From the NCBI GenBank assembly GCA_964350495.1, contig CAYGKG010000006.1:8412-63176 (forward strand): a DNA stretch of 54,765 nucleotides. Direction: 5' to 3'. The notes beneath the pieces are model-generated. The model did not search any database. It was not told where the DNA came from and worked only from the letters and a program-made list of their open reading frames with translations. A program made the position numbers and the translations under genes. Positions within the stretch are counted from its first letter, which is position 1, and each line of letters begins with the position of its first letter. Positions 5,646 through 54,765 of this stretch are shown piece after piece. Source of the DNA: an uncultured Alphaproteobacteria bacterium. Its GTDB lineage: Bacteria > Pseudomonadota > Alphaproteobacteria > SHVP01.

Positions 5646-7052
5646 TCAGCTATGGATGGCGTGTCCAGCGACGGCCAACGCCGCCTCTTTCATGCCTTCG
5701 GAGAGCGTGGGATGGGCGTGGCAGGTGGCGGCGATATCTTCCGCCGAGCCGCCGAACTCCATACACAGAACCGCTTCGTGGATGAGCGTGCCGGCATCCG
5801 GGCCAATGATGTGGACGCCGAGGACGGCGTCGGTTTTCGCGTCCGCCAAGATCTTAATGAACCCTTCCGCGGCGCCGCTAACCTTGGCGCGCGGCACTGC
5901 AGTGAACGGAAACTTTCCAACCTTGTAGTCGACGCCAGCCTTCTTGAGGTCTTCCTCGGATCGCCCGACCGTTGCCACCTCGGGGCTGGTGTAGACCACG
6001 CCCGGGACCTTGCCATAGTCGATATGGGCGTGGCGGCCATGCAGCATTTCGACGCAGACCACACCGTCTTCGGACGCCTTGTGCGCGAGCATCGGCCCCC
6101 GAATCACGTCTCCGATCGCATAGATACCGTCGACGGAGGTTTTGTAGGTTGCGTCAACCTCGACAAATCCCTGGGCGTCCCGCTTTACGCCGACCGCTTC
6201 GAGACCGAGCCCGTCGGTGAAGGGTTTGCGGCCGATCGACACGAGCACGACATCGGCCTTCAAGTCCTCCGAATCGCCGCCGTTCGCCGGCGCGACGCTC
6301 AAGGTCACATTCGATTTGGACGCCTTGGCACCGGTGACCTTGCTGCCCAGACGAAACGTCAAACCCTGTTTGGTCAGGATGCGCTGGAGGTGCTTGGCAA
6401 CCTCGCCGTCCATTCCTGGCACGATCCGGTCCAAATACTCGACGACCGTGACGTCCGCGCCCAACCGGCTCCAGACCGAGCCCATCTCCAAGCCGATGTA
6501 ACCGCCGCCGACGACAATCATCGTCTTGGGCACCTGCGACAGCGCAAGCGCGCCGGTCGAGGACACGATTCTCTTTTCGTCGATATCGACGCCGGGCAGC
6601 GGCGTTACCGACGACCCCGTCGCCACGATAATGGTCTTGGCATCGAGCGTGGTTTTTCCCTTGGCCCCGACGACCGTCACCTTGCCTGGCGCGGCGATCG
6701 ACCCCACCCCAACGATGCTGTCGACCTTGTTTTTTTTGAGCAGGAAGGCGATGCCTTTGGTCAGATCTTCTACGACCTTGTCCTTGCGGCCGAGCATCTT
6801 GGCGAGATCGAGGGAAACGCCGCCCATGCCGATCCCGTGCGCGTCCAGCCCGTGCTGGGCTTCGGCATAGAGTTCCGAACTTTGGAGCAGTGCCTTGGAT
6901 GGAATGCAGCCGACATTGAGGCACGTCCCGCCAAGCCGGTCGCGGCTTTCGATGCACGCGACCTTGCTGCCCATCTGGGCGGCACGAATCGCGGCGACGT
7001 ACCCGCCTGGGCCGCCGCCAATAATTACGATGTCATAGCTCGCGTCTGCCAT
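5646..7052 (-). CDS. lpdA: Dihydrolipoyl dehydrogenase (E3)
   Basis: GGGPGGY, CLNVGCIPSK redox disulfide, HPTLSE; lies downstream of sucAB. Confidence 0.97.
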   Translation of the reverse strand: MADASYDIVIIGGGPGGYVAAIRAAQMGSKVACIESRDRLGGTCLNVGCIPSKALLQSSELYAEAQHGLDAHGIGMGGVSLDLAKMLGRKDKVVEDLTKGIAFLLKKNKVDSIVGVGSIAAPGKVTVVGAKGKTTLDAKTIIVATGSSVTPLPGVDIDEKRIVSSTGALALSQVPKTMIVVGGGYIGLEMGSVWSRLGADVTVVEYLDRIVPGMDGEVAKHLQRILTKQGLTFRLGSKVTGAKASKSNVTLSVAPANGGDSEDLKADVVLVSIGRKPFTDGLGLEAVGVKRDAQGFVEVDATYKTSVDGIYAIGDVIRGPMLAHKASEDGVVCVEMLHGRHAHIDYGKVPGVVYTSPEVATVGRSEEDLKKAGVDYKVGKFPFTAVPRAKVSGAAEGFIKILADAKTDAVLGVHIIGPDAGTLIHEAVLCMEFGGSAEDIAATCHAHPTLSEGMKEAALAVAGHAIHS

Positions 7053-26672: not shown

Positions 26673-28319
26673 ATGATTTGGATTGCAATCGCCCTTGTGC
26701 TGCTTGCGACTGTCGTCGCCATTGCCCTCCCGGTCCTGAGCGCCCGGGCACCGCAGAGTACCACCGCCGACCATGACCTCGCGGTCTTCGCGGACCAAAT
26801 GAGCGAACTCGACCGCGACCGGGACCGCGACCTTATCAACGCCGTGGAGTACGACGCCGCGCGCGCCGAAATCGGGAGGCGAATCCTGCTGGCCGAGCGG
26901 CGTTCCCCGGCCCGGAATACGGCCGCGAGAAGCGGGCGAAGCAATCTCGCCGTCGCGATCGGCGTCCTGCTGATCGTTCCGCTTGCCGCCACGCCGGTTT
27001 ACCTGTGGCGCGGCAACCCGAGCTTGATCGGCGCAGCGGTCGTCGCCGACAGCCGCCCCGCCGCCGCGCGCGACGCCGAAACGATGGCAGGCCTGCAGGA
27101 ATCGGTCACCCGATTGAAGGCGCGTCTTGCGACCGCACCGGAGGACTTCGACGGTTGGGTTCTGCTGGGGCGCTCTTACATGGTTACGCAAGAACCGTTG
27201 CTCGCGATCGAGGCTTACGGCAAAGCCATCGCACTGCGCCCTGACGACGGCGCGGTGCGATCATTCCTGGGCGAGGCTGTCGTCTTTTCCGCAGCAGGCT
27301 CGGTGACCGAGGCCGCCCAGTCGGCGTTTCGACGCGCCCTAGCCGTCGACCCGTCAGATCCGGCCGCGCGGTTCTATCTCGCACTCGGCGACGCGCAAGC
27401 GGGGAATTTGCGCGACGCGTTCGACGACTGGCTCGACTTAGCTGGTGATACGCCGCCGGACGCGCCGTGGCGGCCAATGCTGATGCAACAACTACAAGCC
27501 GCCGCCGAAAATCTGGGCGTCGACCTCGCCACGGCTTTACCCCAGGGGCGCGCACCGGCCCTGACCCAAGGAGGGCGCGGGCCAAGCCGCGAAGACGTCG
27601 AGGCCGCGCAGGATATGTCGCCGCAGGATCGCGACCAAATGATCCGCGGCATGGTGGCGAGCCTCGCCGCACGCCTTGAGGAAAACCCCAACGATGCAGA
27701 GGGATGGGAGCGCCTAGCTCGGTCCTACCGCGTGCTCGGAGAAACGGCAAAGGCGGCTGACGCCGAAGCACGGGCGCTCGCCGCGCGCCAGCCGACGGGC
27801 GGCCCAAGCGGCCCTACCCGCCAAGCTCCAGCCCCGGCCTCCAACGAGTCCGCACCCTCCGGGCAATCCGACGACACCCAACAGGAAATGATCGAAGGCA
27901 TGGTTGCGGGCCTCGCGGCGCGCCTTGAGGAAACACCCCAAGACCGGGAGGGATGGCTTCGTCTGACGCGATCCTATGAAGTTCTGGGGAAGACCGACCT
28001 GGCGCTGCAATCGTTCGAGAAGGCGGCAACCCATTTTCCCGAGGATGTCGAGATCTTGCAGCTTTTTGCGCGGGCGGTCGTGAATCAAGCGGCGGCCGAT
28101 GCGGCGTTGCCGACACGGGCATTTAACCTCTATCGGCGGGTCTTGGAAATCCAACGCGGCAACCCGGAGGCGCTGTATTTCGTCGGTTTGGGCGAAGCCG
28201 AACGGGATAACCAAGACGAAGCGCGCCGGCATTGGACGAATTTACTTGAGACCCTTGAGCCGGAATCCGACGCCCGCGCCATCGTCCAACAACGTCTACG
28301 TGCGCTGAGTAGCCCCTAA
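26673..28319 (+). CDS. ccmI: Cytochrome c biogenesis protein CcmI (CycH), TPR repeats
   Basis: Two N-terminal TMs around the DQMSELDRD...EIGRRIL segment, YLWRGNP, several TPR modules. Confidence 0.9.
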   Translation: MIWIAIALVLLATVVAIALPVLSARAPQSTTADHDLAVFADQMSELDRDRDRDLINAVEYDAARAEIGRRILLAERRSPARNTAARSGRSNLAVAIGVLLIVPLAATPVYLWRGNPSLIGAAVVADSRPAAARDAETMAGLQESVTRLKARLATAPEDFDGWVLLGRSYMVTQEPLLAIEAYGKAIALRPDDGAVRSFLGEAVVFSAAGSVTEAAQSAFRRALAVDPSDPAARFYLALGDAQAGNLRDAFDDWLDLAGDTPPDAPWRPMLMQQLQAAAENLGVDLATALPQGRAPALTQGGRGPSREDVEAAQDMSPQDRDQMIRGMVASLAARLEENPNDAEGWERLARSYRVLGETAKAADAEARALAARQPTGGPSGPTRQAPAPASNESAPSGQSDDTQQEMIEGMVAGLAARLEETPQDREGWLRLTRSYEVLGKTDLALQSFEKAATHFPEDVEILQLFARAVVNQAAADAALPTRAFNLYRRVLEIQRGNPEALYFVGLGEAERDNQDEARRHWTNLLETLEPESDARAIVQQRLRALSSP

Positions 28320-28439
28320 AACGAAGAGAAGGCGCACCAGGGACGATGCGCCTCCTTCGATTACGGACGTATTGGGGGATCGTTCCGTAATTTGCGGCCG
28401 AAAAATACATCGCTAGGGCCCGAGCCGCCGGCCCTAACG
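28318..28439 (-). ncRNA. Candidate sigma54-dependent small RNA (~122 nt, three stem-loops, U tail)
   Basis: Minus strand, in order: 10-bp 5' stem CGUUAGGGCC/GGCCCUAGCG; U-rich linker; stem AUUACGGA/UCCGUAAU with loop AUCCCCCAAUA; stem GAGGCGCAUC/GGUGCGCCUU with loop GUCCCU; UUUU. A -24/-12 motif predicts +1 at about 28439. Confidence 0.62.
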
Positions 28440-28449
28440 CCCTCTAACG

Positions 28450-28466
28450 AGCAATCTCCGTACCAA
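28450..28466 (-). promoter_or_regulatory. sigma54 (-24/-12) promoter, leftward
   Basis: Minus strand TTGGTACGGAGATTGCT matches TGGYACG-N4-TTGCW with GG-N10-GC spacing. Confidence 0.72.
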
Positions 28467-28491
28467 ACGGCGAAACCTCGTCGATTCACCT

Positions 28492-28504
28492 CATAGCATT
28501 GATT
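28492..28504 (-). promoter_or_regulatory. Possible IHF site
   Basis: Minus strand AATCAATGCTATG vs WATCAA-N4-TTR (1 mismatch), beside an AT-rich tract, at about -53 to -65 from the leftward sigma54 start. Confidence 0.35.
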
Positions 28505-28595
28505 TTAATGGACAATTTTTCTGTTGCCGAATCCCGCAGCCGGCCTCCCGTGCCAATACGGGGACACCCCCTGTATCAATCCGGGATTGGCACGC

Positions 28596-28610
28596 TGGCA
28601 CGACCAATGC
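28596..28610 (+). promoter_or_regulatory. sigma54 (-24/-12) promoter, rightward
   Basis: TGGCACGACCAATGC: TGGCACG-N4-ATGC with GG-N10-GC spacing; about 85 bp upstream of ORF 28697. Confidence 0.6.
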
Positions 28611-28696
28611 GCGTTGAATTCCAAGGGTACAGCCCCAATATTGACAGTGTTGAACGATTTAGCCGACACTGGCGCAGGCATTAAGGTTAACTCGCT

Positions 28697-29005
28697 ATGG
28701 TTCAAATAGGCTTCGGCGGCATCAGCGCCGCACCGGTCGGTTTTACGGGCTCCGCCTTGGGCGAGGCCGTGTCGCGCCGAGTCCAGGACCAGCAGACGGC
28801 GCGTCCGGTCCGCGAGCCAGAAGAGCCCGATGACGGCGGCGATCGCCAGCCGACAACCTTGATCGATAGCCGCGAACGGAGCGATGAAATTCGCGCGCGC
28901 AATGAGGCGGAGGACGAAGCGGTCCGCGCTGCACAGGAAGACCGTCGGCGGGAGCGTGAAGACCGTGAGCCGCAGCCGGGCGATCGGCTCGACCTACGGG
29001 TTTGA
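28697..29005 (+). CDS. Hypothetical highly charged 102-aa protein
   Basis: Fills the gap between a promoter-like motif and an intrinsic terminator; E/R/D-rich helix; ends GDRLDLRV. Confidence 0.7.
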   Translation: MVQIGFGGISAAPVGFTGSALGEAVSRRVQDQQTARPVREPEEPDDGGDRQPTTLIDSRERSDEIRARNEAEDEAVRAAQEDRRREREDREPQPGDRLDLRV

Positions 29006-29028: not shown

Positions 29029-29057
29029 AAAGGCGCCTTTCAGGCGCCTTTTTTGTT
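29029..29057 (+). terminator. Intrinsic terminator (possibly bidirectional)
   Basis: AAAGGCGCC-TTTCA-GGCGCCTTT followed by TTTGTT; lies between convergent ORF 28697 and ispZ. Confidence 0.8.
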
Positions 29058-54691: not shown

Positions 54692-54765
54692 TGGAGCGGG
54701 TGAAGGGAATCGAACCCTCGTCGTAAGCTTGGGAAGCTTCTGCTCTACCATTGAGCTACACCCGC
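54692..54765 (-). tRNA. tRNA-Gly (CCC)
   Basis: Minus strand GCGGGTGTAGCTCAATGGTAGAGCAGAAGCTTCCCAAGCTTACGACGAGGGTTCGATTCCCTTCACCCGCTCCA: 74-nt cloverleaf, anticodon CCC, encoded CCA. Confidence 0.97.

Follow-up and report, generated by a model that had tools for sequence, protein, structure and literature searches.

A conserved small RNA gene with a predicted sigma-54 promoter in a group of uncultured Alphaproteobacteria

Comparison with related sequences identifies the region 28440-28318 on the minus strand of a 54,765-bp stretch of alphaproteobacterial DNA (the window, to which all positions given without a contig name refer) as a gene that encodes an independent small RNA about 123 nt long. 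The window belongs to a 3.35-Mb genome (G000) of the genus here called g1. The element is very probably a real and conserved small RNA that depends on sigma-54 and acts by base pairing. It was previously uncatalogued and, in the searches made, was confined to one group of uncultured Alphaproteobacteria; the kind of RNA is itself known. The whole explanation put forward here, which is considered likely though well short of certain, is that an enhancer-binding protein (EBP) activates sigma-54-driven transcription of a small RNA that acts in trans by pairing with Shine-Dalgarno (SD) regions. An initial annotation, made from the letters of the window, had proposed an independent small RNA of about 122 nt with a sigma-54 promoter. 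That proposal found support, as the promoter motif was present in all 23 copies of the gene and the flanking sequence drifted, the helices covaried, and RpoN, EBPs and Hfq are encoded.

The small RNA gene and its conservation

The gene extends on the minus strand from a predicted start at 28442-28439 to the end of a U run at 28318, as judged from the fold, the alignments and the covariance-model matches. The 5' part of the RNA is stem-loop 1 (28439-28411), in which a 10-bp stem (28439-28430 with 28420-28411) of variable sequence and conserved pairing encloses a 9-nt loop. It is followed by a single-stranded, A/U-rich linker (AUGUAUUUUUCGGCCGCAAA, 28410-28392), which begins with AUGUAUUUUU (28410-28401), and by stem-loop 2 (28391-28360), the proposed seed, which carries the C-rich loop AUCCCCCAAUA at 28380-28370. 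Stem-loop 3 (28356-28318), detected by a simple terminator scanner, is an intrinsic terminator: a G+C-rich hairpin (28356-28327) with the loop GUCCCU is followed by UUCUCUUCGUUUU, and the last U's of the RNA (28321-28318) overlap the stop codon TAA (28317-28319) of the convergent plus-strand gene ccmI/cycH (26673-28319; PF23914 TPR_CcmH_CycH, 7.2e-42). The linker and the second stem with its loop had been described at the outset, as had the third stem with its GUCCCU loop and its U run reaching into the ccmI stop codon, and all were recovered. In the case of stem-loop 2, the minimum free energy (MFE) structure of the single sequence pairs AUGUAUU with AAUACGU instead, and it is the alignments that back the stem-loop originally described over this alternative.

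The minus-strand RNA folded at -53.6 kcal/mol (z = -2.98), which was equalled by none of 200 shuffles, compared with z = -1.09 and 33 of 200 shuffles for the plus strand. The only ATG-led frame in the RNA (28410-28123) has an unconserved start codon and is broken by indels, so there is no conserved open reading frame (ORF). With a terminator, a U tail and a non-coding sequence, the element has the properties of a stand-alone small RNA gene.

Alignments of 8, 14 and 20 sequences show covariation, in the minus-strand sense, in each of the three helices. Among the eight sequences of genus g1, 97.4% of 304 cells were paired (35-51% in slid controls) and 7 of the 38 pairs had changed on both sides, with both-sided changes in four of the ten pairs of stem 1 within the genus. 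For hairpins 2 and 3 in 14 sequences, 95.8% of cells were paired and 12 of the 22 pairs had changed on both sides. The 20 sequences of alignment A6 were aligned to R1, the covariance model derived from the eight copies of genus g1; here 95.8% of 620 cells were paired and 18 of 32 pairs had changed on both sides, including 9 of 10 pairs in stem 1 and 7 of 12 in the terminator, where 100% of cells were paired. None of 500 shuffles reached the values observed in A6, an alignment that, being fitted to the model, favours the structure. The pairs of stem-loop 2 survive in other genera through A-U to G-C and wobble changes. The earlier observation that the G-U pairs work on the minus strand only was confirmed in the alignment (U-G at columns 4-28, 2-30 and 101-108 of alignment A2, and G-U at columns 52-83). 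The loop-2 core CCCCCA was invariant in all 14 genome copies, and 13 of the 14 have a C-rich terminator loop, which reads GUCCCU, UCCCCCAA or ten consecutive C's.

A pseudoknot between loop 1 and the linker is possible. Its 5' strand would be GCGGCU in loop 1 (28423-28428, minus strand) and its 3' strand GGCCGC inside the A/U-rich linker (28394-28399, minus strand). In the eight genus sequences, 97.9% of the cells of these six pairs were paired, with two pairs changed on both sides and one unpaired cell, and the copy from genus g7 has a different 7-bp pairing, UUGGCUG/CAGCCAA, in the same places. Two observations speak against the pseudoknot: G007 carries an uncompensated double change in it, and genus g2 has a tetraloop in place of loop 1 and no equivalent of the pairing.

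The distribution of the RNA was examined in the 17 genomes of the family, which are also the genomes of the order and represent seven genera. A DNA search found the stretch in all seven other genomes of genus g1 at 79-91% identity, and the second hairpin alone was matched in two further genera. Model R1 matched 14 of the 17 genomes and six of the seven genera, with one copy per genome. Homologue search and covariation had both been named as ways of checking the initial annotation, and both came out in its favour, with the RNA found in 14 of 17 genomes and its helices covarying. The RNA-negative genomes are those of genus g4 (0 of 3), which are 1.2-2.2 Mb in size and 64, 98 and 83% complete. 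The gene order ccmI, RNA, ispA was kept in all six RNA-bearing genera, and the RNA adjoins the 3' end of ccmI.

Wider searches added few copies. Scanning 185,579 species genomes for the exact pattern gave eight loci, all duplicates of the genomes above, whose titles are those of metagenome-assembled genomes of uncultured Alphaproteobacteria (one 'Proteobacteria'). A degenerate loop-pattern scan of metagenome contigs returned 23 loci, nine of which were members according to a second model, R2; the 14 left unscored by R2 were dropped, as was an extra R2 match in L132 that overlapped the true match on the opposite strand. The 23 copies compared below are those of the 14 genomes and the nine metagenome contigs, and they have 21 distinct upstream sequences. 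Reverse-strand R1 matches in L006, L009, L008 and L004, which overlap terminators, were removed from A6 by a cut-off of E <= 1e-5; the G015 copy (27 bits) did not pass this cut-off and is absent from A6. When 151 sampled genomes of the class were searched with R2, two weak matches and no convincing member were found outside the family. G126 (31.5 bits), with a GG-N10-GC that is degenerate only, and G143 (27.6 bits), which adjoins the end of a coding region, were excluded.

The initial annotation had not recognized the RNA family, and an Rfam 15 scan agreed: there were no matches in 28200-28720 at the gathering score or at E <= 10, and the sole match in the window at gathering score was a tRNA (54695-54765). 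No described family matching this RNA was found in the literature searched, some supplementary small RNA lists lying outside that search.

Metatranscriptome contigs gave at most a weak hint of expression. Two contigs from a relative about 92% alike, from two runs of two studies, covered the gene, one of 203 nt (28313-28466) and one of 283 nt (28329-28466). Both extend past the promoter, by 14 and 145 nt, and because of this they cannot show the transcription start and may include DNA or read-through. These are the one short contig each of runs X1 and X2; runs X3 and X4 yielded no contig on the stretch, and a lack of cover in such libraries is no evidence of absence.

The promoter region and the candidate target

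Promoters of sigma-54 follow the consensus TGGCACG-N4-TTGCW, with GG at -24 and GC at -12 at a fixed spacing of 10 nt. The near-consensus -24/-12 motif claimed in the initial annotation is indeed present on the minus strand as TTGGTACGGAGATTGCT (28466-28450), of which TGGTACGGAGATTGCT agrees with 11 of the 12 specified consensus positions. The first base of the 10-bp stem 1 coincides, as had also been claimed, with the predicted +1 at 28439, 12 nt past the C of the -12 GC. A strict pattern, TGGYAYNNNNNTTGCW, occurs once in the window compared with 0.07 expected (it turned up at least once in 7 of 100 shuffles), and a slightly wider -24/-12 pattern occurs seven times in the whole 3.35-Mb genome. 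GG-N10-GC was kept in 23 of 23 copies, which agree with 9-11 of the 12 specified positions; examples from other genera are TGGCACAGGTCTTGCT (g7), TGGCATATGACTTGCG (g6) and TGGCCCGCCGCTTGCC (g3). In all 14 copies of the genus g1 type, the GC lies 48-49 nt from the model start, that is, from the conserved part of the RNA. The sequence directly upstream of the promoter was unconserved.

Further upstream, two kinds of element stand out from an interval that is otherwise poorly conserved. The first resembles the binding site of integration host factor (IHF), whose consensus is WATCAANNNNTTR: AATCAATGCTATG (28504-28492, minus strand), with one mismatch, lies between the dyads described next and the promoter, and a site with at most one mismatch begins 38-40 nt upstream of the TGG in 17 of the 23 copies. 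The other is a 15-bp dyad, GTCCC-N5-GGSAC, which with at most two mismatches begins 118-146 nt upstream of the TGG in 19 of the 23 copies and often has a second copy about 22 bp closer to the promoter. In the window, the distal dyad ATCCCGGATTGATAC (28587-28573, minus strand; three mismatches to GTCCC-N5-GGSAC) is a candidate enhancer, or upstream activating sequence, forming half of a tandem pair. The proximal dyad GTCCCCGTATTGGCAC (28565-28550, minus strand), about 22 bp from the distal one, is a candidate second activator site; it lies 99 nt upstream of the TGG, and a second copy at 93-99 nt was also found in G006, G005, G007 and G002. There are 1,752 dyad sites with at most two mismatches in the 3.35 Mb, or about one per 1.9 kb, and because of this genome-wide rate the constant placement of the dyad in 19 of 23 copies is not attributed to chance, though the copies are kin. 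The predicted tandem dyads and the IHF-like site thus occupy conserved positions of the kind expected for activator sites about 80-150 bp upstream with an IHF site between. The predicted enhancer, bend site and -24/-12 element together have the textbook layout of a sigma-54 promoter.

A different palindrome, TTGGCA-N3-TGCCAA or a near copy of it, was seen in the copies of one subclade of the genus (L004, L005, L015, L127, L130 and L146). It lies about 14-30 nt upstream of -24, between the IHF-like site and the promoter, and is missing in this window.

To find possible targets, the genes of the genome were called crudely and their start regions were scanned for duplexes that either loop could form. 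The scan returned 1,568 duplexes at -13 kcal/mol or below, mostly expected noise. The best duplex lying directly over a ribosome-binding site (-21.7 kcal/mol) was that of gene G000:C45:21296-22156, which encodes a secreted protein of 286 aa with a signal peptide that has no family in Pfam, NCBIfam or the protein atlas. The mRNA reads CGAUUGGGGGAUCAUAUG, and 11 of its bases, AUUGGGGGAUC, are the exact complement of the loop-2 sequence GAUCCCCCAAU and cover the SD sequence, so that the invariant loop AUCCCCCAAU has a perfect 11-nt complement in the SD region of the target. The 11-mer ATTGGGGGATC had 35 matches in the 17 genomes compared with four for the reversed control; 10 of the 35 were the RNA gene, seven were the target site and 18 were scattered, mostly away from start codons. 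In every one of the seven target orthologues found in genus g1, ATTGGGGGATC stands 2 nt ahead of the ATG; no copy of the gene was found in G002, a genome that is 88% complete. A 14-nt block, CGATTGGGGGATCA, is invariant in these seven 5' regions, the flanks of which vary, and the proteins are 55-74% identical. A conserved, -10-like TCTAAT stands about 8-10 nt upstream, a position which suggests a very short leader that would consist almost wholly of the pairing site. The mRNA of the 286-aa secreted protein is proposed to be a conserved target whose translation would be blocked by the RNA. The original idea that the C-rich loops serve as anti-SD seeds is in keeping with this match of the stem-loop 2 loop to a conserved ribosome-binding site, and target prediction with the two loops, also suggested then, did yield a conserved site in genus g1.

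Two features of the target gene are recorded separately. The G004 orthologue (G004:C2:615003-615809) contains one in-frame TGA, which may be a sequencing error or mark a pseudogene. In the G000 leader (C45:21240-21295), CCCAAUCCCC can pair with the gene's own GAUUGGGGGAUC, making a cis anti-SD like the loop of the RNA; this was seen in G000 only and is unconserved in the other six orthologues.

A weak second candidate is a pentapeptide-repeat gene downstream of glnBA with an SD sequence of the UUGGGGGA type, the orthologues of which keep only an 8-12-nt match of that type, with a mismatch in the G006 copy. The glnB-glnA operon (G000:C1:6900-10363) has a sigma-54 promoter, TGGCACACGGGGTGCA, at 7010 and upstream dyads of its own, and is followed by this gene, which encodes 409 aa. 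There are seven pentapeptide-repeat paralogues in G000, and such proteins were not found in g4 and g6.

The mechanism suggested by these observations is as follows. Sigma-54 RNA polymerase would transcribe the RNA from the -24/-12 promoter at 28466-28450 when an EBP binds the two 15-bp dyads about 100-145 bp upstream, with the IHF-like bend site between. The RNA would fold into a variable 5' hairpin, which may be pseudoknotted with the linker, the A/U-rich linker, the AUCCCCCAAUA hairpin and the terminator with its C-rich loop. It would act in trans, probably with Hfq, its C-rich loops pairing with G-rich SD regions and blocking translation; an hfq gene is encoded in the genome, and the RNA carries an A/U-rich linker and a U tail. 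The best target in the genus would be the mRNA of the secreted 286-aa protein (G000:C45:21296-22156). Comparison of the sequences shows the gene, its promoter motif and structure, the co-occurrence with the candidate activator and the conserved complementary site; the transcription start, the dependence on RpoN and an activator, the use of Hfq and the repression of the target are what we infer from it.

The candidate activator and alternative explanations

The genome has one rpoN gene, and RpoN was found in 17 of the 17 family genomes. Of the five EBPs encoded, four have a loop of the GAFTGA or GSFTGA type. One has a GSFTGA loop and is presumably FlbD-like, a name based on the N-terminus of FlbD, and another, PspF-like, has no receiver domain. 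A protein of the NtrC type has the GAFTGA loop, and the adjoining NtrX type is without the loop, as a preprint on Caulobacter NtrC describes for NtrX. The remaining EBP is an orphan response regulator (G000:C60:4015-5475) that consists of a receiver, an AAA+ and an HTH_8 domain and has the loop GSFTGA; none of its neighbours is a kinase gene, and it reached no NCBIfam equivalog cut-off. A resemblance to TacA, the orphan EBP of Caulobacter controlled by a phosphorelay of the ShkA/ShpA type, is no more than an idea. Four such EBPs are listed for Caulobacter in the literature, and no TacA binding motif was found in the portion of the literature searched.

With moderate confidence, this orphan regulator is put forward as the most likely activator of the RNA. 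Its orthologues (62-95% identity) occur in 13 of the 17 genomes, namely in 13 of the 14 RNA-positive genomes (the exception, G009, is 66% complete) and in none of the three RNA-negative genomes of g4, a co-occurrence that rests on a single loss in the small-genome g4 and so amounts to one evolutionary event. In the RNA-positive G015, three EBPs were found, the orphan type and two encoded by adjacent genes on contig C212, one of them confirmed as NtrC and the other taken as NtrX by its position.

The main alternative, activation of the same small RNA by NtrC, which would make it a nitrogen-limitation RNA, is considered unlikely. The genome does encode an NtrC whose GAFTGA loop is intact, genes of the NtrC type are found throughout the family, and the weak target candidate with the UUGGGGGA-type SD lies directly downstream of glnBA. 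However, g4 retains NtrC and lacks the RNA, and the dyads at the glnBA sigma-54 promoter (G000:C1:7010), CCTGC-N7-GCAGG and GTGCC-N9-GGCAC, differ from the GTCCC-N5-GGSAC of the RNA in both sequence and spacing, an argument that assumes glnBA to be NtrC-dependent here. The orphan regulator is favoured over NtrC because of these phyletic patterns and differing dyads, a preference that shares the dependence on one loss event. A place for the RNA in the flagellar hierarchy under the FlbD-like activator is more improbable by far. The genome does have this activator and flagellar genes with sigma-54 promoters, but the FlbD-like protein, present in 10 of the 17 genomes, occurs in only 8 of the 14 RNA-positive ones, yet in 2 of the 3 RNA-negative ones; it was not found in the RNA-positive G001 (100% complete), G005, G009, G010, G015 and G016 (99%). 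In addition, the CGGCAA-N3-TTGCCG-like dyads of the flagellar promoters, presumably FlbD sites, are unconserved upstream of the RNA. The role in 'motility or nitrogen' suggested in the initial annotation is thus unsupported as written, the FlbD-like protein being missing in six RNA-positive genomes and NtrC not tracking the RNA.

Two further explanations dispense with SD pairing or with the gene itself. A sigma-54-dependent RNA that acts by protein titration or in some other non-pairing role, its SD match being incidental, would account for the failure to find a conserved target outside g1, and two loops sharing a C5 motif do resemble multi-site decoy RNAs. A perfect 11-nt complement exactly over the SD sequence, invariant in seven of seven orthologues, argues against this role, as does the point that no bacterial protein is known to bind C5 loops, and the role is regarded as improbable. 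That there is no RNA gene at all, only a ccmI terminator with chance structure and a chance -24/-12 match, is hardly credible. Hairpin 3 does adjoin the ccmI stop codon, but on the plus strand it is not followed by a T run and that strand folds no better than shuffles, whereas the three helices covary in the minus-strand sense and the promoter motif is present in 23 of 23 copies.

The explanation preferred here, an EBP-activated, SD-pairing small RNA, has its own points against it, beyond those given above for A6, the pseudoknot, the contigs and the co-occurrence. The distal dyad is degenerate in this genome, as its three mismatches indicate. No other convincing copy of the dyad was found beside a sigma-54 promoter in the genome, except possibly at contig C131, so that there is no support from a regulon. 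A seed match at a ribosome-binding site was found in g1 and not in g3, g5 and g6; in the latter three, the complement of their own loops, WATGGGGGTTS, was unenriched, with 3, 4 and 4 matches compared with 4, 2 and 2 for control patterns, and no match lay clearly at a ribosome-binding site. Outside g1, the search for the target gene gave only two 30%-identical paralogues in g7, both without the site. Within the genome, TTGGGGGA was unenriched (35 occurrences, compared with 43 for the reverse).

The mismatch scan that gave the 1,752 dyad sites was too noisy to single out other copies. The top matches of a position-weight scan, on C2, C52 and C102, lie inside coding sequence and were rejected, as was the dyad on C153, a lone intergenic site without a good promoter. 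On C131, a good sigma-54 promoter, TGGCACGGGGCTTGCG, at G000:C131:2291 (minus strand) precedes a gene whose product is secreted, about 180 aa long and without a family, and two weak sites 130-180 nt upstream are loosely like the dyads of the RNA; this gene may share a regulon with it. Strong sigma-54 promoters were also seen at flagellin/hook-type genes at G000:C5:22652 (minus), C69:15329 (plus), C29:28365 (plus), and C17:13347 and 14644 (both minus).

A narrower reading, offered tentatively and thought rather less than probable, is that the orphan regulator and the RNA form a dedicated signalling module, with the RNA as the main or only direct sigma-54 target of the regulator; the same estimate takes in, jointly with the module, a 5' domain folded as a pseudoknot and a pair of C5 loops by which mRNAs with GGGGG-type SD sequences would be silenced. 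The scarcity of other dyad copies and the joint presence and loss of RNA and regulator leave room for a dedicated pair and are no proof of one.

Neighbouring features and relation to known small RNAs

Divergent from the RNA gene is ORF102 (28697-29005, plus strand), which encodes a highly charged protein of 102 aa beginning MVQIGFGG. It is conserved in g1, g2 and g7 and has no family in Pfam, NCBIfam or the protein atlas. An 11-nt motif, TTAAGGTTAAC (28681-28691), is conserved upstream of the ORF, with a spacing to the ATG that varies. A possible sigma-54 promoter for ORF102, TGGCACGACCAATGCG at 28596-28611 (plus strand), was rejected as probably due to chance, being absent from the closest relative, G006. 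Between ORF102 (plus) and ispA (minus), a hairpin at 29029-29051 that is flanked on either side by a T run resembles a bidirectional terminator used by both genes.

Few sigma-54-dependent small RNAs are known, and Qrr, GlmY and CrcZ are each central to a signalling pathway. Qrr1-5 of Vibrio, controlled by LuxO, are multi-hairpin RNAs of about 100 nt with their own terminators, transcribed by sigma-54 under a response-regulator EBP of which they are the chief output, that act by base pairing with Hfq. The RNA described here is like them in being a sigma-54 small RNA under a response-regulator EBP, with a terminator and action by base pairing, features predicted in this case from sequence only. 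It differs in its lack of an Rfam match, its occurrence in uncultured Alphaproteobacteria, its enhancer dyad and its single copy per genome, and in that its proposed seed is a C5 loop whereas that of Qrr is single-stranded. In the GlmY/GlrR system of Enterobacteria and the CrcZ/CbrB system of Pseudomonas, the small RNA is the principal sigma-54 output of a response-regulator EBP, and an IHF site lies between enhancer and promoter. GlmY and CrcZ act by protein titration (of RapZ and of Hfq/Crc, respectively), in contrast to the anti-SD pairing proposed here, and the present RNA has no Rfam match.

Among Alphaproteobacteria, cuckoo/CcsR, alpha-r14 (NfeR1) and AbcR are trans-acting small RNAs with C-rich anti-SD hairpin loops, and their promoters are of the sigma-70 or RpoH type. 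Their motif is CCUCCUCCC or CUCCCA, compared with AUCCCCCAAU here, and no Rfam match connects the present RNA to them. C-rich apical loops that pair with G-rich 5' sites of mRNAs are also described for 6C of Actinobacteria and sX13 of Xanthomonas in PMC6486639 and PMC3771888; these RNAs belong to unrelated lineages, have no sigma-54 promoter and showed no homology by the Rfam scan. Three small RNAs of Bradyrhizobium japonicum, BjsR5a, BjsR6a and BjsR2, have predicted RpoN-type promoters according to PMC5082802. According to Table 1 of that paper they are restricted to Bradyrhizobium, and their likeness to the present RNA lies in the promoter prediction.

For Alphaproteobacteria, the literature searched, with the supplements of PMC5082802 and PMC3616915 lying outside the search, gave only promoter predictions for sigma-54 small RNAs. 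The present case has a complete conserved architecture of predicted enhancer, bend site, promoter and structured RNA together with a candidate activator and target, and the whole system could be rebuilt in a laboratory host despite coming from uncultured organisms. Rfam would gain an RNA family, and two proteins of unknown function would be given a first regulatory link. The dedicated module, if it exists, would correspond in Alphaproteobacteria to LuxO-Qrr or GlrR-GlmY.

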